Source: an uncultured Acidimicrobiia bacterium (GTDB lineage Bacteria > Acidobacteriota > Terriglobia > Versatilivoradales > Versatilivoraceae). Taken from it: 64,000 bases of DNA. Location: NCBI GenBank assembly GCA_963786955.1, contig CAWBAT010000005.1, forward strand, positions 1,280,001-1,344,000, in the 5' to 3' direction. Position numbers and translations under genes: made by a program. Each line of letters begins with the position of its first letter. Position 1 is the first letter of the stretch. Shown here one piece after another: positions 7,644 through 37,635 of this stretch. A model generated the notes under the pieces. The model was not told the DNA's origin, made no database searches, and saw only the letters and a list, made by a program, of their open reading frames with translations.

Positions 7644-8738
7644 ATGAAGCATGTGTTGCATCTGACAGAAACTTCCGACACCGGCGGTGCGGAAAACATG
7701 TTCATCAGCTTGATTGAGAATCTGGACAAAACCCGTTACAAGTCCATTGCCTGTCTGCTGGGAGATGGATGGCTCAAGACCCAATTACAGAGGCGGGGGA
7801 TCGAAACCATAGTGGTCCCGCAGCGTCATTCTTTCGATTTTCCTTGGCTCTTTCGGCTTACCAGGCTGCTGAGGGACCGTTCGATACACGTGATGCACGC
7901 GCATGAGTTTGCAATGAACGTGTACGGAAGTCTGCTTTCCAAGATGACGGGAATTCCTATCATTACAACAGTACATGGGAAAAACTATTATTGGGAAAAA
8001 TGGCGCCGCCGATTGGCCTACCGATTCGCAGCGCGGCAATCAACCATGGTGGCTGTTTCTGAAGATCTTAAGCAGTTCTTGATGCAACGGGTCGCGATCC
8101 CTGCTGAGAATATCCGGGTTATACATAATGGTATTGATTTTCACGGCTATGGGGAGATGGACCGGAACAATACAATCCGGCGGGAACTGGGCATCGACGC
8201 GAAACAGCCCGTCATTGGTACGGTAGGCAATCTTTTCGCCGTGAAGGGACAAATTTACCTCCTCCGGGCTTGCAAGTCCGTAGCAAAGACTTTCCCGGAC
8301 TTTGTACTGCTGGTAGCTGGTGAGGGTGAGGAGTTGGGTTCCCTTGAAGAAGAAGCCTGCAATCTCGGAATTCGAGGCAACGTCAAGTTCTTGGGGTTTC
8401 GTGAGGATGTTCCCTCTCTCCTTCAGACGATGGATGTCTTTGTCCTGCCCTCCCTTTCCGAAGGGCTGCCGCTTTCCGTCTTGGAAGCATTCGCCTTGCG
8501 GAAACCCGTTGTAGCCACGAGCGTGGGGGGAATTCCTGAAATCGTGCAAGACGAGGCCACCGGTTATCTCGTGCCTCCGAAAAGTCCGGAAGCTCTGGCG
8601 GTGAGGATTATTGGGTTGCTTCGCGATCCTCAGAAAGCTGCAAAAATTGGAAAGGCTGGCCGGGAGAGAGTGGAAGAGGCTTTTGGCTTGGAGCAGATGG
8701 TACAGAAATATCAGTCTCTTTACGACAACGATCAATGA
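7644..8738 (+). CDS. Glycosyltransferase family 4
   Basis: GGAE, HNGID, VFVLPSLSEGLPLSVLEA...VGGIPE. Confidence 0.9.
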   Translation: MKHVLHLTETSDTGGAENMFISLIENLDKTRYKSIACLLGDGWLKTQLQRRGIETIVVPQRHSFDFPWLFRLTRLLRDRSIHVMHAHEFAMNVYGSLLSKMTGIPIITTVHGKNYYWEKWRRRLAYRFAARQSTMVAVSEDLKQFLMQRVAIPAENIRVIHNGIDFHGYGEMDRNNTIRRELGIDAKQPVIGTVGNLFAVKGQIYLLRACKSVAKTFPDFVLLVAGEGEELGSLEEEACNLGIRGNVKFLGFREDVPSLLQTMDVFVLPSLSEGLPLSVLEAFALRKPVVATSVGGIPEIVQDEATGYLVPPKSPEALAVRIIGLLRDPQKAAKIGKAGRERVEEAFGLEQMVQKYQSLYDNDQ

Positions 8739-8830
8739 AGTTCTCGATTGACCGCTTGAATCAGGCGACGACGATCTTGACAGGCACCGCTTCTTCATTA
8801 TTGGCTCTGGTCTTGAACCGCTGATACGAA

Positions 8831-8957
8831 GTAATGCTTTTCATAAATAGAATGATGTTAACGCCGGGTCGGTGACCCGGCCTACAACTTTGTAGGCCGC
8901 GTGCCCCCACGCGGCGCCTGTCCTAATATTCGTCACTCTAATTACGAATCGCAGTAC
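8831..8957. mobile_element. MITE-like element with ~29-bp imperfect terminal inverted repeats enclosing two GTAG-type REP hairpins (copy 1)
   Basis: gtaatgcttttcataaatagaatgatg...cgtcactctaattacgaatcgcagtac; second copy at 30709-30806. Confidence 0.65.
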
Positions 8958-8971
8958 TAAGTTGCTGACGA

Positions 8972-9344
8972 TTGAATACATTAAGTCGAGCTACCCCCCC
9001 CCCAGGAGATGCGAATGGAGACAAGTCCCCTCTCGGGAGGGGAGTGAAGGCTTGATAAGCCTTCACGCGTCATTAGCCCTCAGGGGTGGGTATGATTGGC
9101 ACTGGGAGCGCTGGCATCCTGCCCGCTTTTCGTCACCGATGCCCCCCAAGGTGTGAAATATTGGTTTCGGTGTTGCTCTGAGAGTGTCCCCCTTGGTTAA
9201 GGGGGACTGTAGGGGGGGGGTCCAGCAGCACTAACGACTACCCCCTAGCCCCCTCCTTACCCAAGGAGGGGAACCGATATTGAATTTTTTCACACCTCCC
9301 CACCAGCGGAAGGGAATTCAGACTGTGGCCGTTTGAATGCGACT
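8972..9344. repeat. Composite palindromic repeat element (copy 1)
   Basis: Both ends shared with 18013-18279; inner aggtgtgaaa...tttcacacct inverted pair (9149-9297); several CCCC/GGGG hairpins. Confidence 0.6.
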
Positions 9345-22139: not shown

Positions 22140-23069
22140 TTAGTTTATTTTCCTTAAGTTTTGAGGGGGGAGGGGAGCTGAAGCGTCCGTTGAGCATCCA
22201 ATTCGCTGGGTGGAAACAACTAAGTTATCCCAATAACGTGACTGCACCTGTGAGGCGCCGTTATTAATGTAATTTTCAAAAAATACTGCATTGATGCCAT
22301 AGGTGCTATAGCTACCGATAAAATTTAGGTTGGTTTTGCTTGCCTCAAGATGACCGTCAATCCAGAATTCTTGTATGCCATTCGACTGTCCCGCATCGTT
22401 CAACTTCACGTGCGCTTCAACGCAGTTCCACGTTCCGGCATTTGGAGAAGTGAAGATTGGGGTAGTACCACTCGCGCCCCCCAGGTAAACGATATGGGAA
22501 CTATCGTTATAGCCAACGCAATTTACCGTACTTCCTGTTACACAACTTGCAGGATCAATGAGTAAGTAATTATTGTTCCCCCCTGTATCATTTGACCATA
22601 GGTGAGCAATCATCGCCTCCGACCAATTCGAGGCAACAAAAGAAATCGCCCGTGTGAACTTGCTGTTGTGTCCACTTCCCTGACCAACCCAGTTGGCTTG
22701 AGACTTCAAATAGACCCGGTAATACACTTCTCGAAATTTCGTTGTACTATCCACTCCTGCAGGAGGAGGCATACCTGCACCTGGAGGTGTCATCCCTAGC
22801 GCTAATTTAAGTGATCCTGCATCCACTTGTCCGGAAGTCCAACTTGCCCGCATCCCATACGAATTGTTGAAGCCAATTCCAGACACTCTCGCAAAGCCGC
22901 CCTGGCCAGACGAATCAAAGTAGTTGGATATCTTGTCCGTTTCGAAATCATCGCACCATAACCAGGCCGGATGCAGTGTTTTCCAGTTGGACGGGCATTC
23001 GTCCGCAAATGAATTCAACGAAAACGTGGTGTACAGACAGAGCATGGCAAAGGGAATTGCATATTTCAC
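22140..23069 (-). CDS. Secreted beta-jelly-roll, polysaccharide-lyase-like protein with C-terminal PLPPQNLRKIN tail (E1)
   Basis: GTG start after GGAG; signal peptide ..SLNSFA; WCDDFE, EVYYRVYLK, W.CVE.HVKLN, FWIDG, YWDNLVVST. Confidence 0.6.
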   Translation of the reverse strand: MKYAIPFAMLCLYTTFSLNSFADECPSNWKTLHPAWLWCDDFETDKISNYFDSSGQGGFARVSGIGFNNSYGMRASWTSGQVDAGSLKLALGMTPPGAGMPPPAGVDSTTKFREVYYRVYLKSQANWVGQGSGHNSKFTRAISFVASNWSEAMIAHLWSNDTGGNNNYLLIDPASCVTGSTVNCVGYNDSSHIVYLGGASGTTPIFTSPNAGTWNCVEAHVKLNDAGQSNGIQEFWIDGHLEASKTNLNFIGSYSTYGINAVFFENYINNGASQVQSRYWDNLVVSTQRIGCSTDASAPLPPQNLRKIN

Positions 23070-23138
23070 TGATGTCTCCAAACAAATGATTTGATCTACT
23101 AGGGCCCAGTTCTCTGCAGGAAGCGGCAGAGAATTTAC

Positions 23139-23960
23139 TTATTGAATCCGCAGGTTAGTCGGTGGATTGGGAGGATTAACGGGACTTCCTGAAATATTCG
23201 AATTCCATGTATCATCTGTCGAGTAATCATCTGTCCATATATTTCCACCAGACCCGCAGGAACTTCCACCATTGCAATTCTGATGGTAGAAGACCTGGCA
23301 CATCGCATTGCCCCAGGTCGCCCCAGAAAAATCCCCACTCGCAGAATTGTAGAGATTGTGAACGAAGCTACCTACACTTGTTCCATTGACAAACAGTTCT
23401 ACCTTTCCACTGCCACCAGAAGTCGTTTGAAGAGTCAATGCGATAATGTACTCTTGATAATTCTTAGCCGCCGCTCCATTGAAGTTGTAATTCACGCTCC
23501 CGCAGACCCCACCACTACAACCGCTTCCATTGGTCGACTCCACGTTGATATTCGTCGTGTCGAGGTAAAACGTGAGCAGGTCACTGCCTCCGCCCTGCGT
23601 CAGCCGAATGATCTTATTGTGGCCCCTATTCCCAAAGCTAAACGTGCTGCCAAACTTCATCCACCAACGAAAGTAAAACGTCTTCCCACTAAACCACGTC
23701 CCAGCCCCGTAACTCCCGCTCTGCAAGTCATTACACCCACTCTGCCCATCACTTCCATCAGGAATCGTGTACTTCATCGCTCCGCTGCCATCATGCCCCC
23801 CCGTTGCATCAATCACCGCATTCGCAAAATTACACGTCCCTTTACTCGTCGTCGCACTGTCCGCATTCCAAGTAAAGTAGTTAGTTGCCATGGCGTCCTG
23901 ACCGGCCACGAACAGACAGAGAAACCAGATTATAGCCGCCAGACAAGACGACTTTTTCAT
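23139..23960 (-). CDS. Secreted beta-jelly-roll, polysaccharide-lyase-like protein with C-terminal PNPPTNLRIQ tail (E2)
   Basis: ATG 23960, signal peptide MKKSSCLAAIIWFLCLFVAGQDAMA; FYFRWWMKF, NKIIR, GKVELFVNG, IWTDD. Confidence 0.55.
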   Translation of the reverse strand: MKKSSCLAAIIWFLCLFVAGQDAMATNYFTWNADSATTSKGTCNFANAVIDATGGHDGSGAMKYTIPDGSDGQSGCNDLQSGSYGAGTWFSGKTFYFRWWMKFGSTFSFGNRGHNKIIRLTQGGGSDLLTFYLDTTNINVESTNGSGCSGGVCGSVNYNFNGAAAKNYQEYIIALTLQTTSGGSGKVELFVNGTSVGSFVHNLYNSASGDFSGATWGNAMCQVFYHQNCNGGSSCGSGGNIWTDDYSTDDTWNSNISGSPVNPPNPPTNLRIQ

Positions 23961-24885
23961 TCTGGCTAAATAGAGCTTCCTGCTGCTGGGGAGACGCCAA
24001 AATGAAGAGGTGATTGTCATAGCAAAACTTCTCCTTGATTTGAACCGTTTCGTCAAGAGCGAACCTACATTGCCCGATAGGCTGAGTTTTCCGTCCCGCA
24101 ATGATCTTTCAACGTTCATTGGCTCACCGAATTCAAACCTATCCGAACTGCGCGCCAATGCCAGCGTCTTCTTTGCGGACCTCAATTGATTCTCTTGCGT
24201 CCCGGGGACCGTATATTGAAATCTTTCAGGCGCCATTTGGATTTCGTAGAACGACTGTCGAGCCCGGAAACATTACGGCATGAGAATCGCCAAAATCGCT
24301 CAGGCGTCAAGAACCAGATTAGCAGCTTTCTGGCCGCAGTTCACGCTTTCTTGGGGGCAGCTCAGAAATATGAAATTCCTAGCCAAGTTTGAGTATACAA
24401 CTTTCTTTTAAGTTGGATAGTTATGCTAACGAATCATCCAGTCCAAGCGGTGGAAAAGTCAAATCAATACCTGAACTTAGCCGATCTAATCCAGCCTGGA
24501 CCAGGTCTCCGGGATCATTACGACCTCTGAAGGAAGCTTCTTAACGAAACAGACTGAGCGGAGGCTTAAGAGGTTTTTGCCTGCACCCCTCGACTGCGTT
24601 CCGTCATTGAGTTCGAGGAAGGCCATAACTAATTCTGTAATGTCGAGAACAATATTGCAACCGCTGATCAAATCGTGTTGAAAAGTGACGTCCGAGCAGA
24701 GCGCCCCAGCCATACTTTGCTTATTGATGGAACAGGCACATGGACTTACCTTATACTTTGCCGACAGGCGCGCGTCACAGCGATGACAGTGATGGGACGG
24801 GCCATACTGAAGAAAGAGATCCATTCCCACCAGTACTAAAGGTAACAGGGGGTTGTGGCGATATAGATTTGGCCTTCTAAATACC

Positions 24886-27037: not shown

Positions 27038-27057
27038 ATTGTTCACAGTGGAACAAT
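27038..27057. promoter_or_regulatory. Palindrome (TGT-N10-ACA), candidate enhancer-binding-protein site
   Basis: attgttc-acagtg-gaacaat, about 50 bp upstream of the sigma-54 motif. Confidence 0.4.
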
Positions 27058-27106: not shown

Positions 27107-27122
27107 TGGCATGCAAGTTGCT
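27107..27122 (+). promoter_or_regulatory. Sigma-54 (-24/-12) promoter
   Basis: TGGCATG-CAAG-TTGCT, near-perfect match to TGGCACG-N4-TTGCW with exact spacing. Confidence 0.7.
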
Positions 27123-27173: not shown

Positions 27174-27680
27174 ATGAAGTATAAAGCAGATAAACTTATT
27201 ACGATCACTATACTTCTTATTGTTGGAATGGTTCTTTTGCCTTCCTGTTTAATGGCAGCAGATGTTCAACTTGCCTGGAATGCCAATACAGAGTCCAACT
27301 TGGGTGGATACAGGATCTACTACGGGACGAGTTCGGGTAACCTGAGCAGTTCAGTCAACGCCGGGAACGTGACAGCCTATACCCTGACCGGACTTTCGCT
27401 TGGAACAACTTACTATTTTGCGGCGACTGCCTATAACACATCTGGGAGCGAAAGTGGTTTTTCAAACATCGTTTCTGCGACGGCTGGTTCTTCTTCTTCG
27501 CCTAGCTGTGATGTGAATGGGGATGGTTCTGTGAACGCACTCGATCTACAAGGATTGAGCAATGGCATATTGGCTGGATCCACGTCCAGTGTTTACGACA
27601 TTAATCGGGATACCGCAGTGAACGCTTTGGACTTGCAACGGCTTGCAAATATTATTCTCGGCACCGCTGTTTGCCAGTAG
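27174..27680 (+). CDS. Secreted Fn3 (A strand absent) + C-terminal dockerin-like protein (P1)
   Basis: GGAGG RBS; signal peptide then ADVQLAW..GYRIYYG..TYYFAATAY; duplicated Ca-binding loop-helix CDVNGDGSVNALDLQ / YDINRDTAVNALDLQ. Confidence 0.8.
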   Translation: MKYKADKLITITILLIVGMVLLPSCLMAADVQLAWNANTESNLGGYRIYYGTSSGNLSSSVNAGNVTAYTLTGLSLGTTYYFAATAYNTSGSESGFSNIVSATAGSSSSPSCDVNGDGSVNALDLQGLSNGILAGSTSSVYDINRDTAVNALDLQRLANIILGTAVCQ

Positions 27681-27726
27681 CTGCGAGAATGGGAATCATC
27701 AGACTAACTAAGGTGAAGGATTGGTC

Positions 27727-29406
27727 ATGCATATAGACAAGCGCTTTGCATTTCTTTTGATGGCTTTGATGATAATCTTGGGGGCATTCGTCTTATCGAC
27801 AGAGACCGCATTTGCCCAGGCCCCGGTTGTGAGCGTTGGAACGGCCAGCGGAAACGCTGGAACAGCTGTGGACTTGACCGTGTCTTTCACGGCTGGCGCC
27901 ACTGGAGTAAGCACCCTCCAATTTGACCTGACGTTCCCCTCGTCTCTAGCCTATGTTTCGACGACAACAGGTGCGGCGGCAACCGCGGCTGGGAAATCGG
28001 CAAGTGGCAGCGCTATCTCCGGAGGTGCTCGAGTGTTGGTCTTCGCACTTAACACAACCTCGATTGGTTCGGGTGCAGTCGCCATAGTTCGACTCAACAT
28101 CGCCAGTGTCACCAGCCCGGCATCCATACCTGTGGGCATCACGGGAATTGTCGCATCAGATTCTGTCAGCAACGCGGTTACTGCTAACGGTTCTGGCGGC
28201 TCGGTCACAGTCACAACCCCTGGCGACACGACCGCACCGGTGATTTCGGCAGTGACGGCCTCAGGCATGACGGCGACGGGAGCAACCATTAGCTGGACGA
28301 CCAACGAAGCGTCTGATACGCAGGTGGAGTATGGGAAGACGACGGCTTATGGAAGTCTGACGACGTTAAATGGCAGCATGGTGACGTCGCACTCACAGGG
28401 TTTGAGTGGACTCACGGCCAGCACGACTTATAACTACCGGGTGCGGTCGAAGGATGCGGCTGGAAACCAGGCGGTATCGGGGAACGCAACGTTTGCGACG
28501 ACAGCGGCGGCGGACACAACGGCACCGGTGATTTCGGCAGTGACGGCCTCAGGCATGACGGCGACGGGAGCAACCATTAGCTGGACGACCAACGAAGCGT
28601 CTGATACGCAGGTGGAGTATGGGAAGACGACGGCTTATGGAAGTCTGACGACGTTAAATGGCAGCATGGTGACGTCGCACTCACAGGGTTTGAGTGGACT
28701 CACGGCCAGCACGACTTATAACTACCGGGTGCGGTCGAAGGATGCGGCAGGAAACCAGGCGGTATCGGGGAACGCAACGTTTGCGACGACAGCGGCGGCG
28801 GACACGACGGCACCGGTGATTTCGGCAGTGACGTCGTCAGGGATGTCGGCGACGGGAGCGACTATTAGCTGGACGACCAATGAAGCGTCGGATACACAGG
28901 TGGAGTATGGGACGACGACGGCTTATGGGAGTCTGACGACGTTAAATGGCAGCATGGTGACGTCGCACTCGCAGGGTTTGAGTGGACTCACGGCCAGCAC
29001 GACTTATAACTACCGGGTGCGGTCGAAGGATGCGGCTGGAAACCAGGCGGTATCGGGGAACGCAACGTTTGCGACGACAACGGCGCCGGACACGACGGCA
29101 CCGGTGATTTCGGCAGTGACGTCGTCAGGGATGACGACGACGGGAGCGACCATTAGCTGGACGACCAATGAAGCGTCGGATACACAGGTGGAGTATGGAA
29201 CGACGACGGCTTATGGGAGCACCACAACCCTCAACACTTCCCAGCTCACCAGTCATCTCCAATCGGTGAGTGGTTTGTCTGCGAGGACGCTTTACCACTA
29301 TCGAGTCAAATCCAAAGATGCGGCAGGTAATCTGGCTACTTCAGCTGACTTGACTTTTACCACTTCCTCAGTCTTACCCCCTCCAACCAATGTTACGGTC
29401 AAGTAG
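27727..29406 (+). CDS. Secreted cohesin-like + four Fn3-like repeats + C-terminal LPPPTNVTVK tail (P2)
   Basis: Signal peptide ..AFA; VSVGTASGNAGTAVDLTVSF..GVSTLQFDLTF..G.VAIVRLNI cohesin pattern; 4 x 96-aa DTTAPVIS..ATISWTTNE repeats. Confidence 0.78.
   Translation: MHIDKRFAFLLMALMIILGAFVLSTETAFAQAPVVSVGTASGNAGTAVDLTVSFTAGATGVSTLQFDLTFPSSLAYVSTTTGAAATAAGKSASGSAISGGARVLVFALNTTSIGSGAVAIVRLNIASVTSPASIPVGITGIVASDSVSNAVTANGSGGSVTVTTPGDTTAPVISAVTASGMTATGATISWTTNEASDTQVEYGKTTAYGSLTTLNGSMVTSHSQGLSGLTASTTYNYRVRSKDAAGNQAVSGNATFATTAAADTTAPVISAVTASGMTATGATISWTTNEASDTQVEYGKTTAYGSLTTLNGSMVTSHSQGLSGLTASTTYNYRVRSKDAAGNQAVSGNATFATTAAADTTAPVISAVTSSGMSATGATISWTTNEASDTQVEYGTTTAYGSLTTLNGSMVTSHSQGLSGLTASTTYNYRVRSKDAAGNQAVSGNATFATTTAPDTTAPVISAVTSSGMTTTGATISWTTNEASDTQVEYGTTTAYGSTTTLNTSQLTSHLQSVSGLSARTLYHYRVKSKDAAGNLATSADLTFTTSSVLPPPTNVTVK
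28225..29370 (+). repeat. Intragenic tandem repeat, 288-bp unit x4
   Basis: Units start at 28225, 28513, 28801, 29089; first three nearly identical in DNA, fourth diverges after ~29220. Confidence 0.92.
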
Positions 29407-30816: not shown

Positions 30817-31194
30817 TTGACTGCATACAATTCCTCAGAAAATGAAAGTGGCTTCTCCAATGAAATTTCGACGACGATAGCCGCTTCGACTGATACGACA
30901 CCAACGGTGATTTGGGCAGTGACGGCTTCAGTCGTGACGGCAATGGGAGCGACCATCTGCTGGACGACCAACGAGTCGTCTGATACGCAGGTGGGGTATG
31001 GGACGACAACGGCCTTTGGAAACAACCCTGCCATCGACTCACCAAAAGTAACAAGTCATTCTCAAGCCTGGGCTGGTCTCGCTTCAAGTACGCTCTATCA
31101 TTATCCCGCCAAGTCACGCGACGCTGCTCGCTATTTGTCATTGTCCGGTGATTTTGGTTTCACCACAGTGGCTACATTTGATCTCCATCCCTGA
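30817..31194 (+). pseudogene. 5'-truncated, decayed Fn3 repeat gene
   Basis: Begins mid-domain (TAYNSSENESGFSNEIS) then a degenerate P2-type repeat (DTTPTVIWAVTAS..ATICWTTNESSDTQV); no signal peptide. Confidence 0.7.
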
Positions 31195-31653: not shown

Positions 31654-32529
31654 ATGAACTCGACCTCCCAATTTCTCAAAACACGTCCATTTGTTGAAGA
31701 AGCTTCCCCGTACCTCAGAGCCCTTGTGGTCGGGTCTTTGCTAACTTATCTTTATTTCCCCGTCTTAAATGGGATCGTTGCTGAGTGGTGGAATAACGCC
31801 AACTACTCCTATGGCTTCCTGATCCCGATCGTATCTTTTGTCATACTTTGGAATCGAAGAAAAGAATTTCAGGGAATCCAGGTCTCTCCTGAATTCCGAG
31901 GGGCATGGATATTCTCTTTTGGTCTTTTCTTGTATCTTACTGGAATCGCGGGCAAGGAAGAATTCATTCAACGGTTTTCGTTCCCGCTCACACTTTTAGG
32001 ATTGGTTTACTTTCTTTGCGGTAAATCGGCGGCCCTATCTGCGCTTTTTCCCATCGGTTATTCCTATTTCATGATCCCTCTTCCTTCTATCGTTTTCAGT
32101 AACATTGCTTTACGCCTGCAACTGCTTGACGCCAAAGTGGTTGCTGTGGTTGCTTCCCTTCTAGGTGTGCCAGTCTTCCGAGAGGACTTCATCCTCCATC
32201 TCCCTGAGATTTCACTCAAAGTGGCCGAGGCGTGCGGCGGTGCTTTTTCCGTTATAGCATTCCTCGCCCTTGGGGTTTTTTACACTCATGAATTGAAATT
32301 GAAGCGGCCCGCCAAGATCTTCCTCTGGCTGCTGTTGATACCGCTGGCTGTTTTTTCCAACATCATTAGGATCTTGGTGATTGTGCTCGTGTCGTACTAC
32401 TCTGGTAGTTGGGTTCTACGTTCGAGTATTCATCTCCTCTCGGGTGTTTTCAGCTTCTTGGTTGATTTCGGAGCTTTGGTATTCATAAGTAAACTCTTGG
32501 AAAAATCACCGAAACAAGATCATTCGTAA
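31654..32529 (+). CDS. Exosortase (EpsH family transpeptidase)
   Basis: W...YSYGFLIP, FMIPLP, VAEACGG (Cys), NIIRI (Arg), IHLLSG (His); multi-TM. Confidence 0.88.
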   Translation: MNSTSQFLKTRPFVEEASPYLRALVVGSLLTYLYFPVLNGIVAEWWNNANYSYGFLIPIVSFVILWNRRKEFQGIQVSPEFRGAWIFSFGLFLYLTGIAGKEEFIQRFSFPLTLLGLVYFLCGKSAALSALFPIGYSYFMIPLPSIVFSNIALRLQLLDAKVVAVVASLLGVPVFREDFILHLPEISLKVAEACGGAFSVIAFLALGVFYTHELKLKRPAKIFLWLLLIPLAVFSNIIRILVIVLVSYYSGSWVLRSSIHLLSGVFSFLVDFGALVFISKLLEKSPKQDHS

Positions 32530-32532
32530 GAA

Positions 32533-33183
32533 ATGAGTCCAAAAGCACATTTGCAATGGTGGATGGCGGTAATTATGTTGGTTGCCGCCAATCTTTATGT
32601 TCACACGGGAGACGATAACACGTCGAATACCCGTCCCCCAGATGTTCAGTTATTCCCCGCAAGACTTGGCGCTTGGAACTGTGTTTCCTCCGAGGGGACG
32701 AAATCGGAACACGAAGACCAAAATGTTGATAAGTTCTGGAAAGCAAAATGCCAGAAGGGAGCCAGCCAACCCCTAGACGTATTCATCGGCTATTCTTTTC
32801 ACGCTGGTAAGAAAGGGAGGCTCCCGCCCCCGTTAGTGTACTTCGGGCAGCAAGAATGGGATTTCCCTACAAACCAGTCTGTCTCTATTGACGATGAGAA
32901 CCAAAAAGGAAGAAAACTCAACCTAATGCAATGCCTGCTCAGGAACCCCCAAGGATCTAAAGTCGCATTGAGCTATTGGTACCAGTTATCGGGGAATTCC
33001 TATGCGAGCGACTACGGTTATCGATGGGCCTTGATTCTCCGTCGATTGATTCGTCAACCTGTTCGTGGCCAGATCGTACGGATAACTTTGCCTGTAGAGG
33101 GATTGGCCCAGCAGGAAGCCTTTGAGCTTGAAAAGGAGTTGGGATTGGAACTTTGGACTTTGGTTCAAGCCGAACTCCGTTGA
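32533..33183 (+). CDS. EpsI family exosortase-associated protein
   Basis: N-terminal anchor, FP.RLG.W, DVFIGY, LSYWYQ, G.IVRIT; directly follows exosortase. Confidence 0.75.
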   Translation: MSPKAHLQWWMAVIMLVAANLYVHTGDDNTSNTRPPDVQLFPARLGAWNCVSSEGTKSEHEDQNVDKFWKAKCQKGASQPLDVFIGYSFHAGKKGRLPPPLVYFGQQEWDFPTNQSVSIDDENQKGRKLNLMQCLLRNPQGSKVALSYWYQLSGNSYASDYGYRWALILRRLIRQPVRGQIVRITLPVEGLAQQEAFELEKELGLELWTLVQAELR

Positions 33184-33541
33184 GGACCTGTATGGCAACA
33201 AATTCATGGAACATTTGGAGGCAGAATGGAGCTGACCTCGATTTCTTGCCGGGAATTGTTTAGGTCTGTTTTTCCCCGCATTGCTTTTGCTAGACCAAAG
33301 ATCCTCTTCTCCGAGAAAGTCCATAATCGTTGCCCGGTTGATCTCATTTGCCGAAAATTCAGCGCAGGATCCGACCAAATACAGTTCAAGGGAATTAAAT
33401 TACACTCTTGTTACTAGGTTATCCACCTGCAATCTTTCCCGCCGCAGAGATTTTCACATTAAAAATAAGAATAAGACCTAACGTATTCTTAATAATTAAA
33501 TTAGATCTGAAGTCGTGCCCCGATATGAAAGTGCAGGCAAT

Positions 33542-33557
33542 TGGTCAGACAGTTGCA
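33542..33557 (+). promoter_or_regulatory. Candidate sigma-54 promoter
   Basis: TGGTCAG-ACAG-TTGCA, exact GG-N10-GC spacing, same distance to ATG as in P1. Confidence 0.45.
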
Positions 33558-33608
33558 TTCCCAGTTCCTGCTGGCATCAGCCACAAATCTAAATTAGGGC
33601 AAGTCTTC

Positions 33609-34793
33609 ATGCTAAGTAGAAATACCAGCCCAATCATTAGAATCGCGGCCCTTTTGGTTCTCATATTTGTATTCAAAGGGGCCGGAAATGGTTTTGCAGG
33701 CTCCTTGTCAATTTCCTGGACTCCGATCCAAGACAGTCTCTTAGCAGGATACAAGATCAAATTTGGCACGACCTCGGGAATTTATTCGCAATCGGTGAAT
33801 GTCGGAAACGTCACCAGCTATGTCGTGCCGAATCTCACCGATGGAACGACGTATTATCTCATCGTCGTTGGATACGACACCAGCCAAGTTGAGGGCCAGG
33901 CCTCAACCGAAGTATCAGGAGCTGTCCTCGCATCCACTGCGGTTGCCGCATCTTCCATCACAGCCAATGGGGCGGTCATTATCTGGACAACAAATAAACC
34001 AGGTGACAGCCAGACCGATTATGGAACCACGACAACCTATGACGCGAGCACATCTCTGGATCCCACTCTAGTGACAAGCCATTCCCAATCGCTGGCGAAC
34101 CTGAATGCAGGTACGACTTATAATTACCGGATCCGCTCCAAGGATGCCGGCGGTTCCGTGACCGTTTCTTCAAACTTCTCGTTCACGACGCAACAAGGGC
34201 CGGACACCACGCCTCCCGGAGATGCGACCAACTTCACGGCGGTGCCTGGCAACACCATAATTAACCTTAATTGGACAAATCCCACAGACCCCGATTATAA
34301 AGGGGTCATGATTCGCTACCGAACAGACGGCGTGTACCCGACCAGTAATGCTGATGGAATGCTTGCGATGGATCGCGTCGAAGTTGCCGGATCAAATGAT
34401 TATTTCGTCCACTCGGGATTGTCGAACGGGACCACTTATAGTTATTCAGCATTCACTTATGACACCACAGGTAATTACTCGCACACCGCGCATATTCAGG
34501 CCACGCCAGCCAATCTGTCAATTACATCAATTTCCCCGATTAAAGGGCTGACAGGAACCACAGTTGTAATCTCGGGCACTGGTTTCGGAACTGCTCAGGG
34601 GAGTAGTAAAGTGACTTTCAATGGACTGACTGCCACCGCGAGTGCTTGGAGCGACACTTCAATCACGGTTACTGTTCCCCAAAATGCCAAGAGTGGCAAT
34701 GTCGTTGTAACGGTTAACGGGGTGCAGACCAATGGGGTCTATTTCAAAGTTGGCAACGGCGTTGGAAAACCCCCGAAAGTGAGAGTCTTTTAA
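33609..34793 (+). CDS. Secreted Fn3 (A strand absent) + 2 Fn3 + IPT/TIG + C-terminal GKPPKVRVF tail (P3)
   Basis: Signal peptide ..GNGFA then GSLSISW; IPT motif ITSISP..G.TGTTVVISGTGFG..WSDTSITVTVP; ATG 33609 chosen. Confidence 0.8.
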   Translation: MLSRNTSPIIRIAALLVLIFVFKGAGNGFAGSLSISWTPIQDSLLAGYKIKFGTTSGIYSQSVNVGNVTSYVVPNLTDGTTYYLIVVGYDTSQVEGQASTEVSGAVLASTAVAASSITANGAVIIWTTNKPGDSQTDYGTTTTYDASTSLDPTLVTSHSQSLANLNAGTTYNYRIRSKDAGGSVTVSSNFSFTTQQGPDTTPPGDATNFTAVPGNTIINLNWTNPTDPDYKGVMIRYRTDGVYPTSNADGMLAMDRVEVAGSNDYFVHSGLSNGTTYSYSAFTYDTTGNYSHTAHIQATPANLSITSISPIKGLTGTTVVISGTGFGTAQGSSKVTFNGLTATASAWSDTSITVTVPQNAKSGNVVVTVNGVQTNGVYFKVGNGVGKPPKVRVF

Positions 34794-35329: not shown

Positions 35330-35345
35330 TGGAGTGATGGATGCT
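35330..35345 (+). promoter_or_regulatory. Weak candidate sigma-54 promoter after AT-rich region
   Basis: TGGAGTG-ATGG-ATGCT, GG-N10-GC spacing; AT-rich 35030-35330. Confidence 0.3.
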
Positions 35346-35385
35346 CTTCATGGGCTGGGATATTCCAAAACGAGGGTTAGGGATC

Positions 35386-37635
35386 ATGCGTAATTACCTA
35401 AAATCCATCATACTTTTTTCAGGCATTTTACTAAGTTTGTCGTCGGCTGCATTTGGACAAACCGGCAACGTCACGGTTTCTTGGGATCCTATAAAAGACC
35501 CAGACTTGGGTGGATACACGGTTCTCTGGGGGACAGCTTCAAAGAGTTATACAGGCTCCCAAAACACGGGGATGACGACTACTCAATCTAACGTATCTCT
35601 CCCTGGCGGGAAGACCTATTATTTTGCTGTCCGGGGGTTCGATCAAGCTGGTGTGCCGGGGGAATTGTCTGATGAGGTTTCTGCGATTGTTAAAGGCAGC
35701 GACACCACACCTCCGGTTATTTCCGGCGTTTCAGCCAGCAACATCACCTCTTCAGGCGCCACCATTTCATTCAGCACCGACGAAGAGGCTTATGTCCAAG
35801 TTGCGTACGGAACAAGTTCCGCACTGGGGGTGTATACAGGCCTCACAAATGTTTCCTCGAAATCGCACCAAGTTGTTTTGAGCAGCCTATCCGGTTCTAC
35901 AACGTATTTCTTTCAAGCAGTCGCCAAAGATCTTTCTGCAAACCAAGCTCTTTCCCAAGTCTTATCGTTCAAAACGCTAGCGGGTCCTGACAAACCTCCG
36001 GACCCTGACAATCCTCCGGACCCGAATGCCGCGATCAAATTTATTCAGATCACTCTGACAAACGTAAGCAGTAATTCAGTATCGATCAATTGGACAACTG
36101 ACAAGTGGACCACGGGGTTTGTTCAGTACGGCTTGGATACCAATTTGGGGATGAGCGTCTCCGATCCAAACTCTCTTTCGAATCACCTCACGGAACTGTC
36201 TTCCCTGACTCCATCCACTCTTTACCGGTATCGAATTACGGCGATGGACACAGAAGGTCACCAGGCCGTTTCAGGGGTTCTGATGTTTAAGACTGCGGAC
36301 CGCGTCAGCCAGCCAGCGCGGCCTTCATCACAAGCAATCTTTATTCCGTCGATTGTTGAAAACAGCCGATTCAGAACGAATCTTGGCATCAACAATGAAA
36401 CCGACACGATAGCCAATGTCAGTCTGACGCTCGTGGACAAGGAGGGGATTGTCCTTGGCGGAACCACCTTGACCGTGGAACCCATGGGGCTGAGACAAGT
36501 CAACAGTGTTGCTCGGGTCCTGTATCCAAACGGCTTTGGGAATGACATAGAAGGCAACCTCTATCTTGAAAGCGACCAGAATATTAAGGCTTGGGCGTCT
36601 CAGATCAACAATGCGACCAATGACCCCAGTCTCTTACTGAGTAAGCAGTCAGGCTCAACGAAACTGCTCATTCCTTCTTCAGCCAACATTGGAAAATTTA
36701 CGTCCTCGCTCGTATTGATGAATATTGGATTATCCACCGCTCAGGTAACCATGAAATCTTACGGGACCTCGGGGCAAGTTCTTGGGCAGACCCGGGAACC
36801 ACTCTCCATTCCGCCCAATGGAATCCTTAGTTTTGACAATGTGCTGGATACTCTTGGCGTAAAGGATAACTACGGCCCGATTGAAATTATCTCCATCAAC
36901 GATGTGCCCATCATTGTTAGTTCGCGCGTCTCCAATGCAAACGGAGCAGGTGGGTTTTTTGAGGGCTTGGATTATGTGAATGCTTCCACTCTTCAATACA
37001 TTCCTTACGTCCTTGATACCAGTGCGACTCGCACTAACCTGGGGATTAATAACGTAACCGAATCTGCCGCAACGGTAAAGATTCGATTGTTTGATCAGCA
37101 TGGAAGTCTCGTGGCCTCGAAGCAAGTTTCGGTAGCACCGAGAGGTCTGACGCAGATCAATAACATTGTTCGCTTTATGATCAACGCGACTGACGTCACG
37201 AACCGGGAAGGGTATTTACAGCTGGATTCTGATCAGCAGATATTTGGCTGGGCGTCTCAGATTGACAACACCAGCAACGATCCCGGGTTTGCCGTGAGCA
37301 AGGGGACCGGTTCGACCCATCTCCTGGTGGACTCCACGGCCAATGTGGGGAGCTTCAAGTCCAGTCTGGTAATTGTCAATGTCGGGGATTCGGATGCGCT
37401 TGTAGACATCGTGTCTCGCAATATCGAAGGAGATATACAAGGCGAAGCCCGCGGGGTACTGATATCGAAGGGTGGCTTCTATAGTACGACCAATATCCTT
37501 GAAACCTTAGGGGTTCACTCCAGCTATGGGCCGGTCGAAATCCTTTCGACAAATGGCAAGCCTCTTTTAGTGACCTCTCGGGTCTATAGCGATTCTGGTA
37601 CGAGCGGGTTTTTTGAAGGACAGTCGATAGATTAA
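35386..37635 (+). CDS. Secreted Fn3 (A strand absent) + 2 Fn3 + two copies of a ~215-aa beta-rich C-terminal module (P4)
   Basis: Signal peptide ..AAFG then QTGNVTVSW; repeated RTNLGINN..WASQI.N..NDP..AN.G.F.SSLV..YGP.EI.S..GFFEG. Confidence 0.78.
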   Translation: MRNYLKSIILFSGILLSLSSAAFGQTGNVTVSWDPIKDPDLGGYTVLWGTASKSYTGSQNTGMTTTQSNVSLPGGKTYYFAVRGFDQAGVPGELSDEVSAIVKGSDTTPPVISGVSASNITSSGATISFSTDEEAYVQVAYGTSSALGVYTGLTNVSSKSHQVVLSSLSGSTTYFFQAVAKDLSANQALSQVLSFKTLAGPDKPPDPDNPPDPNAAIKFIQITLTNVSSNSVSINWTTDKWTTGFVQYGLDTNLGMSVSDPNSLSNHLTELSSLTPSTLYRYRITAMDTEGHQAVSGVLMFKTADRVSQPARPSSQAIFIPSIVENSRFRTNLGINNETDTIANVSLTLVDKEGIVLGGTTLTVEPMGLRQVNSVARVLYPNGFGNDIEGNLYLESDQNIKAWASQINNATNDPSLLLSKQSGSTKLLIPSSANIGKFTSSLVLMNIGLSTAQVTMKSYGTSGQVLGQTREPLSIPPNGILSFDNVLDTLGVKDNYGPIEIISINDVPIIVSSRVSNANGAGGFFEGLDYVNASTLQYIPYVLDTSATRTNLGINNVTESAATVKIRLFDQHGSLVASKQVSVAPRGLTQINNIVRFMINATDVTNREGYLQLDSDQQIFGWASQIDNTSNDPGFAVSKGTGSTHLLVDSTANVGSFKSSLVIVNVGDSDALVDIVSRNIEGDIQGEARGVLISKGGFYSTTNILETLGVHSSYGPVEILSTNGKPLLVTSRVYSDSGTSGFFEGQSID

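Follow-up and report, generated by a model that had tools for sequence, protein, structure and literature searches.

The window analysed here (64,000 nucleotides) holds a PEP-CTERM-type slime-polysaccharide gene cluster of an uncultured acidobacterium. The cluster is marked by an exosortase of the EpsH family with EpsI, and an XrtA-type FemAB and a deacetylase are also among its genes. Within it lie P1 (27174-27680, + strand), encoding 168 aa, and P2 (27727-29406, + strand), encoding 559 aa; the two genes are 46 bp apart, use different frames and are each preceded by a purine-rich stretch resembling a ribosome-binding site. The promoter region, the parts of the two proteins and the exosortase genes are as follows.

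27040..27055, + strand: TGT-N10-ACA palindrome, which may serve as an activator (enhancer) site and lies 52 bp before the sigma-54-like site
27107..27122, + strand: perfect -24/-12 sigma-54 consensus, beginning 67 bp before the P1 start codon
27174..27257, + strand: P1 signal peptide (residues 1-28), recognised from sequence, with predicted cleavage after L-M-A
27258..27488, + strand: P1 FN3 domain without strand A ('socket', class 1 by tree), matching Pfam fn3 positions 15-82 of 84
27507..27677, + strand: P1 type I dockerin, two symmetric Ca-loop/helix repeats between Cys112 and Cys167
27727..27816, + strand: P2 signal peptide (residues 1-30), recognised from sequence, with predicted cleavage after A-F-A
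27817..28221, + strand: P2 cohesin domain, from profile, sequence and structure matches
28225..29370, + strand: P2 stalk of four complete FN3 repeats with a 96-residue period (288 nt)
29374..29406, + strand: strand-A peptide at the C-terminus of P2 (LPPPTNVTVK, then the stop; 'tail', class 1); an alignment of 6 tails shows its conservation
31654..33183, + strand: exosortase (EpsH family) and EpsI, from domain searches

The first-pass annotation of this DNA described P1 as an FN3 socket with a Cys-bracketed dockerin-like duplicate, and P2 as a cohesin-like domain with four FN3 spacers and a donor-like tail. The family searches it proposed bear out the dockerin and the cohesin. P1 matches Dockerin_1 (PF00404) at 47.2 bits against a cut-off of 22.9, as do 13 of 13 aligned relatives. 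Cys112 and Cys167 are invariant in 17 of 17 aligned homologues, in which the signal peptide also keeps its position. Both repeats carry D or N at loop positions 1, 3, 5 and 9 and D at 12, followed by a helix. These are the positions that we take to be the calcium ligands, and the double pattern is intact in all 13 dockerins aligned. The missing strand A of the FN3 domain and the matching terminal peptide are observed, while 'socket' and 'donor' are interpretive labels. Set against solved FN3 chains, the socket profile begins at their residue 19-23, and a homologue is modelled with six strands, its alignment beginning at fibronectin residue 1431.

In the genome profile search, the N-terminal domain of P2 matches Cohesin (PF00963) at 34.9 bits, over a cut-off of 24.1 and across profile positions 2-139 of 139; it is unreported by hmmscan with its filters, and relatives of this cohesin score 36-50 bits. 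Its model (pLDDT 96; Foldseek E 4e-10) has the nine-stranded jelly-roll fold of cohesins, aligning 134 residues of the Clostridium acetobutylicum CohA2-Doc0917 structure (6kgc) at Z 18.3 and rmsd 2.0. Structure matches ranked 1-20 are all cohesins or cohesin-containing, and the first non-cohesin has Z 11.6, which speaks against a different fold, one of the cases named in the annotation as fatal to its proposal. Domain searches agree with it that neither protein has a catalytic domain; matches to Pur_ac_phosph_N and CbhB are to the FN3 repeats only.

The sigma-54 site is the sole exact match in the window and one of 13 in the whole genome. It was found in front of 0 of 27 related P1-type genes and is thus not conserved in relatives. 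The palindrome may be an activator (enhancer) site, as its position suggests, its spacing being within the 32-92 nt range given for PEP-CTERM promoters in the available text of PMC1569441. To the extent of that text, the genomic setting, sigma-54 site and palindrome spacing are those of the PEP-CTERM/exosortase exopolysaccharide system. Unlike the substrates of that system, P1 and P2 lack the PEP-CTERM tail (C-terminal PEP motif, transmembrane helix and basic tail) and therefore are not exosortase substrates; one candidate substrate is found elsewhere in the genome.

Pairing of the P1 dockerin with the P2 cohesin, as proposed in the first-pass annotation, has strong support from the folds, from an adjacency that is conserved and from an exposed cohesin face that appears to be so. 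It is very probable that the two domains bind in a Ca2+-dependent manner. Searched separately, they find as best PDB sequence matches the two chains of one complex, the Clostridium cellulolyticum CipC cohesin and Cel5A dockerin (2vn5/2vn6; same fold, Z 17.0). Among the 401 class genomes, 8 have cohesin matches above 150 bits, and 11 of 11 such matches lie 123-144 bp downstream of a dockerin match in the same orientation. A cohesin follows within 2.2 kb for 26 of 27 distinct socket-plus-dockerin proteins (21 of these cohesins score at least 55 bits, five are weak mini-cohesins), the exception being at a contig end; the related genomes are kin rather than independent, so these counts overstate. 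Dockerin proteins without a socket have a downstream cohesin in 2 of 11 cases. Exposed residues of cohesin strands 3, 5 and 6 are 73-95% conserved among 37 non-redundant cohesins; the dockerin-binding face is presumably formed by strands 8-3-6-5. The front face is more conserved than the back at p = 0.023, on a crude assignment in which the inside and outside of strands 4 and 8 are unreliable. Nine longer matches, a weak test, include no fusion of the P1 dockerin subfamily with a P2-type cohesin. The pair is patchy, being present in 5 of 31 family genomes and absent from the other 97%-complete genome of one of the two same-genus relatives. That the domains are vestigial, plain spacers or sugar-binding modules and that P1 and P2 do not bind is very improbable: cohesin-like domains without a cognate dockerin do exist, and a secretin of this genome bears one of another subfamily (C2:40226-42559), but the adjacency, the intact Ca ligands and the apparently conserved cohesin face argue against it. 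The secretin-borne cohesin was rejected as an anchor, giving no match to the P2 cohesin profile at 20 bits.

The second coupling would join the P2 tail to a P1-type socket, and it is likely that the tail completes the socket in trans. The tail equals the strand A that FN3 domains of the socket subfamily carry when they are internal; a strict motif recovers it in 92 of 187 internal copies, and 17 of 25 N-terminal copies, judged by eye, begin at strand B directly after the signal peptide. Scored with a matrix trained on 12 foreign tails, four genes of the P1/P2 locus take ranks 1, 2, 3 and 5 among 5272 ORFs, although rank 1 is partly circular, five training tails being from relatives of P2. Sockets at 95 bits or more occur in 7 of the 31 family genomes, four of which have the split pair while three have a single chain carrying socket and tail without a cohesin. 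The single chain of one genome (G194) consists, in 212 aa, of a socket, one P2-type FN3 and a tail identical to that of P2; it is 56% identical to the P1 socket and 62% identical over 107 aa to the end of P2. P1 and P2 together therefore resemble one socket-stalk-tail unit jointed by calcium, and at the sequence level the idea of an alternating chain gains real support from this division between split and single-chain genomes. Socket class and tail type agree in single chains of class 1 (3 of 3) and class 2 (6 of 6), the latter being orthologues whose match is one event, not six.

A plainer reading, which we consider unlikely, is that the dockerin-cohesin coupling is the only real one. The P1 FN3 would then be a natural six-stranded cap, P2 a stalk and its terminal peptide a remnant or a secretion/recognition tag, giving an ordinary non-cellulosomal heterodimer. 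Strand-A-less FN3 domains right after signal peptides are indeed very common in many phyla and make up 113 of 117 socket-family domains in related loci, a set picked for likeness to P1. Five genomes (G401, G402, G404, G405 and G019), all carrying P1-type genes and sockets, have no canonical tail on a secreted protein by narrow DNA patterns, with one weak candidate in G019, so the domain may stand alone; counted by hand, these patterns recover 3 of 5 tails of the present genome and about 4-5 of 12 foreign tails. Among complete full-size cohesin partners in related loci, 11 of 14 also lack a tail; it is found on 3 of 14 (4 of 15 counting the window), all from the window's own family. Against the sole coupling, a stop codon follows strand A by 1-4 residues in unrelated proteins (stalks, lyase-like and beta-helix proteins) clustered with socket genes, and single chains hold socket and tail at opposite ends despite differing middles (FN3, F5/8 or unknown). 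In P0057, P0062 and P0065, moreover, the socket is fused solely to a sorting-signal-like tail. Family-wide DNA pattern counts for tails are not above reversed controls, so only ORF-checked tails, three distinct among the 59 loci returned, were used. A model of the mature part of a natural socket-to-tail protein (P0045) has a confident six-stranded socket, a poor middle and an undocked tail (pLDDT 40-44), the middle and tail being modelled without alignment depth. Mini-cohesins in L006, L147, L149, L152 and L157 were not counted as tailed because their last strand is more likely cohesin strand 9, and the end of L230 was dropped likewise. The SAIP[PA]Q motif at the C-terminus of DUF5719-like domains was rejected as an alternative donor, the length after the motif being variable.

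Further candidate parts of the system lie on either side of P1 and P2.

22140..23081, - strand: secreted PL14-like protein with a strand-A-like tail (rank 5 of 5272 ORFs), candidate socket-capping cargo
23139..24236, - strand: secreted polysaccharide-lyase-like protein ending PPNPPTNLRIQ (tail rank 2 of 5272), candidate cargo
30817..31194, + strand: decayed remnant, a socket-type FN3 end (socket profile 58-77) then a P2-type FN3 repeat (48 bits)
33408..34793, + strand: secreted class-2 socket, FN3, FN3, IPT/TIG and class-2 tail, from domain, tail and tree evidence
35341..37635, + strand: secreted class-3 socket, two FN3 and a DUF5719-like domain, without a tail, from domain and tree evidence

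The protein at 22140 scores 25.5 bits against PF21294, under the cut-off of 27. Its neighbour at 23139, whose true start is probably at about 24017, reaches Atlas 0.97 to a PL14-containing cluster. Neither the 22140 protein nor the DUF5719-like domain has a PDB sequence match, and the remnant at 30817..31194 has no signal peptide. The protein at 33408, a second, single-chain socket-and-tail unit by its sequence, has a body 54% identical to that of the cohesin-headed relative P0091. The protein at 35341 is a candidate terminal unit or anchor; over residues 120-764 (645 aa) it shares 54% identity with cohesin-headed P0089, and its body is also shared by cohesin-headed P0084, P0090, P0093 and P0095. 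Cohesin and socket are thus interchangeable heads on the same bodies. Counting the genome as a whole, three or more enzyme-like proteins offer a tail, three or four sockets exist besides that of P1, and there is another dockerin protein (C6:146796); all of these would cap any P1-P2 chain. Beyond the window, one tail lies at C5:1276549 and one socket at C5:1564484. Within the genome, no socket, tail or cognate cohesin with a membrane anchor was seen.

These shared bodies give some ground for a finite one-pass tether, in which enzyme tails would enter the P1 socket, P1 would bind P2, and the P2 tail, misfitting P1, would be specific for the socket of the protein at 35341-37635 (or that at 33408-34793). 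The outcome would match the cohesin-stalk-DUF5719-like protein that is one chain in other genomes. Orthologues of the protein at 35341 in the same locus of G063 are in its favour as well. The P2 tail is, however, identical to the one on a socket protein of class 1 and differs from class-2 tails, and the socket at 35341 forms a separate, well supported clade (98/95), 32% identical to that of P1. We regard the tether as distinctly improbable.

The first-pass annotation had the P2 tail fill the next P1 socket to give a (P1-P2)n chain or a closed ring. The use of a P1-type socket by this tail is supported by the single-chain relatives, which join both ends, but a strict chain or ring is not the conserved feature, and the proposal overlooked the cappers of this genome. 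A long alternating fibre or closed rings, chaperone-free and dissolved by Ca removal, could be the main product, given the two-gene unit's own promoter-like sigma-54 site, from which P1 and P2 could be made 1:1 and exceed the cappers. Neither protein carries cargo, the tail type fits the socket class, and the G194 single-chain equivalent, being only socket, one FN3 and tail, is an ideal head-to-tail monomer. Two-component step-growth chains require near-exact stoichiometry and few one-handed partners, whereas each of the three free ends has its cappers encoded in this genome. The pair also lacks a tail in most lineages, and in G087 the tailed cohesin protein comes after a dockerin protein without a socket, making a repeat impossible there. 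A long fibre as main product is therefore quite unlikely, and long (P1-P2)n fibres, though possible, are less likely than a capped extension unit.

With a dockerin, a cohesin and the two halves of a split FN3 between them, P1 and P2 probably form a two-ended connector that could link enzymes to a surface scaffold and may chain with itself; tentatively, at somewhat under an even chance, we place it as an extension unit in a capped modular scaffold. The proteins would be co-expressed, exported and clipped together by the Ca2+-dependent dockerin-cohesin pair into a heterodimer whose P1 end is one open FN3 socket and whose P2 end, some four FN3 domains further on, is one free strand-A peptide, in effect a split form of the single-chain socket-stalk-tail unit of related genomes. 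The tail would fill a socket in trans and rebuild a seven-stranded FN3, and as its type goes with P1-type sockets, units could add to each other. One-handed competitors for every free end are encoded in the genome, lyase-like tails for sockets, the second dockerin for the cohesin and tail-less sockets for the P2 tail. The expected product would be short capped chains, cargo-[P1-P2]n-terminal unit with small n, acting as a variable-length spacer that places polysaccharide-active proteins in the exopolysaccharide layer. The cohesin joint could be a second entry point for cargo, and the DUF5719-like domain is a candidate for the cell anchor. A wider scheme, somewhat doubtful as a whole, is an extracellular scaffold in this acidobacterial family with two orthogonal, swappable couplings, whose N-terminal acceptors would be a strand-A-less FN3 or a cohesin and whose C-terminal donors a strand-A peptide or a dockerin; P1-P2 would interconvert them to give a chaperone-free (P1-P2)n of capped length and Ca dependence, and G194-type chains would be FN3 homopolymers.

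Compared with clostridial type I pairs, P1 and P2 have one cohesin per protein, no scaffoldin and no CBM, and the dockerin is Cys-bracketed and sits on a non-catalytic adaptor in an exopolysaccharide locus of a Gram-negative host. The symmetric dockerin repeats may allow a dual binding mode as in those pairs, and the Cys bracket could do with a disulfide what the terminal clasp described in PMC3821032 does. A cellulosome would have a scaffoldin with several cohesins and a set of dockerin-bearing glycoside hydrolases; this 93%-complete genome has two cohesins, each single, and its two dockerin proteins both lack a Pfam catalytic domain. GH44-dockerin proteins occur in relatives, and dockerin cargo in other genomes also includes beta-helix and reprolysin proteins. 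The closest functional analogue is ScaH of Ruminococcus flavefaciens, an adaptor scaffoldin that the available portions of PMC12484212 and PMC12270676 describe as a variable-length spacer, hence a repeatable two-ended unit between anchor and cargo; there, cohesin and dockerin are on one chain with one coupling type, whereas P1/P2 has two chains and the FN3 strand coupling. Cohesins and dockerins also occur as real modules outside cellulolysis in archaea and diverse bacteria; the Archaeoglobus fulgidus cohesin 2xdh (Z 17.5 against that of P2) is one of them, and ANME non-cellulosomal cohesin and dockerin proteins are described in excerpts of PMC9012536. According to the accessible text of PMC13487519, non-cellulosomal parent proteins are mostly non-catalytic, with largely unknown roles.

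In donor-strand complementation, as in chaperone-usher pili, an incomplete beta-sandwich is completed by a neighbour's strand, and terminators or tip subunits have one half. Similar exchanges are given for CPR Pam pili (in part of PMC13278184) and, as donor-strand-type matrix fibres, for TasA and archaeal threads (PMC9674648 and PMC9715654). P1/P2 differs from the pili in having an FN3 fold, in missing strand A rather than pilin strand G, in a C-terminal rather than N-terminal donor and in donor tags on unrelated enzymes; no chaperone or usher gene is among the 46 window proteins scanned. In the literature searched, we found no report of such a cohesin-dockerin pair in Acidobacteria or with a split FN3, and no paper with split-FN3 tags and a non-cellulosomal cohesin-dockerin on one pair.

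Non-cellulosomal cohesins and dockerins have long been listed and few have been assigned roles. P1-P2 is such a pair with a defined genomic partner, a testable job as the joint in a spacer and a defined setting, an exopolysaccharide and floc-type locus in Acidobacteria from soil and sediment. The fusions and swaps also open the natural split-FN3 coupling to direct tests on very small proteins: a domain of 80 residues, a peptide of 12 and a candidate monomer of 212. If the reading is true, it would represent a new mode of matrix-protein assembly in Gram-negative bacteria and a pair of orthogonal tags ready for protein engineering. Among sequencing reads, no contig spans the P1-P2 junction by 31 letters on each side; pieces of both genes from close relatives occur in three RNA libraries, and exact short pieces occur in one DNA run.

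Two neighbouring genes, P1 and P2, are separated by 46 bp within a large exopolysaccharide cluster that encodes glycosyltransferases, a flippase, a Wzy-like ligase, an XrtA-type FemAB protein and deacetylase, an exosortase and EpsI. Among named relatives, Terriglobia MAGs come closest.

27174-27680: P1, 168 aa; signal peptide, FN3 domain and dockerin
27727-29406: P2, 559 aa; N-terminal cohesin, four FN3 domains (288-nt period) and LPPPTNVTVK directly before the stop

The first-pass annotation described P1 as an Fn3 domain plus a dockerin duplicate between two cysteines, and this description holds. The dockerin scores 47.2 bits against Dockerin_1 in Pfam (cut-off 22.9), the calcium ligands are intact in both repeats, as in 13/13 aligned relatives, and 17/17 aligned homologues keep both flanking cysteines. 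By analogy with the terminal clasp of dockerins described in PMC3821032, Cys112 and Cys167 may form a disulfide acting as a clasp. The parts attributed to P2, a cohesin-like N-domain, four Fn3 domains and a C-terminal peptide, are all present. Its N-domain gave no match with hmmscan and scored 34.9 bits against PF00963 (cut-off 24.1) in the genome profile search. The predicted model (pLDDT 96) has a Foldseek E value of 4e-10 and a structural match with Z 18.3 (rmsd 2.0, 134 aligned), and ranks 1-20 of 48,161 chains in the structure comparison are all cohesin entries. By profile, model, Foldseek and Z score the N-domain is a cohesin, the fold on which the proposed pairing depended. Domain scans show no catalytic domain in either protein, as annotated.

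Class-wide profile searches of 401 genomes gave 34 cohesin and 32 dockerin matches. All 11 cohesin matches above 150 bits (8 genomes) sit 123-144 bp behind a same-strand dockerin match, and 12 of 19 dockerin matches of at least 75 bits have a same-strand cohesin match at that distance. Among loci L001-L010 and L140-L236 (L011-L139, which lacked dockerins or repeated genome hits, were excluded), a cohesin follows within 2.2 kb in 26 of 27 distinct proteins joining a dockerin to an FN3 without strand A, here called a socket (21 strong, 5 weak mini-cohesins; the exception borders the end of its contig). Where the dockerin protein has no socket, this holds for 2 of 11. Searches with the P1 dockerin and the P2 cohesin, run separately, led to the partner chains of a single solved complex (2vn5/2vn6), and the exposed cohesin residues T33, Q35, D37, S61, S63, R72, L74 and F76 are 73-95% conserved (37 cohesins below 85% identity). 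Calcium-dependent binding of the P1 dockerin to the P2 cohesin is very probable, and a complete absence of P1-P2 binding highly improbable.

The P1 FN3 starts at strand B, its Pfam fn3 match beginning at position 15 of 84. Aligned to solved single FN3 chains, a 78-sequence profile begins at their residue 19-23. The predicted structure of a homologue has six strands, and its alignment to fibronectin starts at residue 1431, the tenth repeat's residue 16. Where the socket subfamily forms tandem arrays, internal copies lead with a P-x-x-P-x-N/G-L strand (92/187 by strict motif, more by eye), and 17 of 25 N-terminal copies, as well as that of L074, begin at strand B right after the signal peptide. 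With a matrix derived from 12 tails found in other genomes, P2, 23139, C5:1276549 and 22140 ranked 1, 2, 3 and 5 of 5272 ORFs, P2's rank being partly circular. All four genes lie in one locus, and 23139 and 22140 encode polysaccharide-lyase-like proteins. The window's locus has three sockets and one remnant, with one or two more sockets elsewhere in the genome. The C-terminal tail probably completes the socket FN3 as its strand A. Six short proteins (P0057, P0060, P0062, P0065, P0052, P0063) consist of little besides a socket FN3 and a GG-C-F sorting-signal-like or transmembrane tail, and are candidate anchored sockets.

Sockets of at least 95 bits occur in 7 of the 31 family genomes. Four (G000, the genome of the window, G063, G095 and G152) encode dockerin and cohesin as a split pair in which the cohesin protein bears a tail; the other three have a single-chain socket and tail protein instead.

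L384:8882-9520: G194, 212 residues
L385:6014-6985: G200
L387:17312-18106: G122

The G194 protein, at a cluster end in a genome without a cohesin, comprises a signal peptide, a socket (56% to P1's), one P2-type FN3 and a tail identical to P2's (62% over P2's last 107 residues). This fusion is the strongest new evidence that P2's tail goes with P1, and the protein is the simplest candidate self-polymerising FN3 fibre subunit. The window also carries a decayed socket + P2-type FN3 gene of similar layout (30817-31194). A tree of 30 sockets resolves into three groups. Single chains whose socket is P1-type have an LP[PA]PTNV-x-V tail (3/3); where the socket is of the 33408 type, the tail is of the PPG[RK] type (6/6, but these are orthologues). 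Fusion, genome distribution and socket-tail match together suggest that P1+P2 is a socket-stalk-tail unit divided by a cohesin-dockerin joint. An FN3 domain has its termini at opposite poles. Socket and tail would thus face apart along the FN3 row, and completion should occur in trans.

The tail is a family trait, found on 5/5 of the best family cohesin proteins. Across all related loci it occurs on 3 of 14 complete full-size cohesin partners (4/15 counting the window), the others ending in a DUF5719-like domain, FN3 or other domains. Five genomes of other lineages with P1-type genes gave no canonical tail on a secreted protein with narrow patterns that catch about half of known tails, which speaks against completion of the socket by a tail. 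Both counts favour a system in which only the dockerin-cohesin pair is a real coupling, a reading we consider unlikely. Over 645 residues the body of 35341 shares 54% identity with cohesin-headed P0089, and 33408's body likewise shares 54% with cohesin-headed P0091; by these alignments cohesin and socket are interchangeable heads, and the system is a kit with acceptors at N-termini and donors at C-termini, P1 and P2 serving as converters.

One-handed partners in G000 include at least three cargo proteins with tails, another dockerin protein of P1's type (C6:146796) and the tail-less sockets 35341 and C5:1564484, the latter in P1's socket class. Relatives also carry P1-type dockerins on GH44, beta-helix, LamG and metalloprotease proteins. 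Such partners would terminate step-growth chains, which should by default stay short. The (P1-P2)n chain first proposed gains from the G194 fusion and the socket-tail class match, and loses from the family-limited tail and the cappers for every free end; a self-chaining copolymer is doubtful. Long alternating fibres or rings as the main product are quite unlikely: the fusion does join a P1-type socket to P2's tail, but every free end has a one-handed partner, and in G087 the dockerin protein preceding a tailed cohesin protein has no socket. A one-pass tether to 35341 is distinctly improbable. The most likely reading, tentatively held, is a repeatable spacer with capped ends (cargo-[P1-P2]n-terminal unit): P1 and P2, once exported, would clip together with calcium, the unit could be repeated, and the spacer would keep polysaccharide-active proteins in the slime layer.

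The P1 dockerin and P2 cohesin are members of the dockerin and cohesin families, and the system as a whole qualifies neither as a cellulosome nor as a chaperone-usher system. Non-cellulosomal pairs are already known in kind (PDB 2xdh; PMC9012536, PMC13487519). The proposed P1-P2 spacer would work much as the variable-length adaptor ScaH of Ruminococcus flavefaciens does (PMC12484212, PMC12270676), though with two couplings. Neither natural split-FN3 coupling nor such a pair in Acidobacteria was found in the largely open-access literature searched.

A perfect sigma-54 consensus, one of 13 genome-wide, begins 67 bp upstream of P1. Another 52 bp upstream lies a TGT-N10-ACA palindrome, at the spacing given for PEP-CTERM promoters in PMC1569441. 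The site is not conserved in the 27 related loci checked. Seven of 27 P1-type genes (L002, L003, L004, L007, L151, L154, L159) have a TGTGA-N6-(T/G/A)CACA palindrome, resembling a CRP-family site, 144-215 nt before the socket. By simple pattern, the only PEP-CTERM-like protein in G000 is an 1835-codon ORF (C6:212568-218075).

The dockerin protein at C6:146796-147902 belongs to a conserved 368-residue secreted type (also L140, L142, L226, L228) whose N-terminal dockerin is P1-type and whose other domain, of 280 residues, matches nothing in Pfam; G146 has it and no cohesin match. The DUF5719-like repeated domain (window 36340-37635) ends most cohesin- or socket-headed stalks in many related loci of these Acidobacteria. 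It had no PDB sequence match and unnamed Atlas neighbours, and is a candidate anchor or lattice domain. A three-gene mini-cassette, all couplers and no cargo, encodes a socket+dockerin protein, a 90-residue FN3-like protein that begins at strand B and is extended at its C-terminus, and a reduced cohesin of 107 residues.

L149:6701-7800: mini-cassette
L157:6692-7806: mini-cassette
L152:4742-5865: mini-cassette
L147:1459-2558: mini-cassette
L006:about 7950-9028: mini-cassette

Its neighbours in L157, L147 and L152 are phage-like (SLT-like and metallophosphoesterase matches, small membrane proteins). In another family, reverse-order adaptors, dockerin then FN3 without strand A, lie beside cohesin genes (L235:7385-8623, L236:5671-6273), and this adaptor type appears to have evolved with its socket and dockerin in either order. 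Large secreted proteins of another family (L166, L232, L233, L234) end in tandem cohesin+dockerin, and the genes behind them encode N-terminal cohesins; the class thus has another non-cellulosomal kit. G000 also encodes a TPR + secretin-like protein (C2:40226-42559, minus strand) whose C-terminal cohesin belongs to another subfamily.
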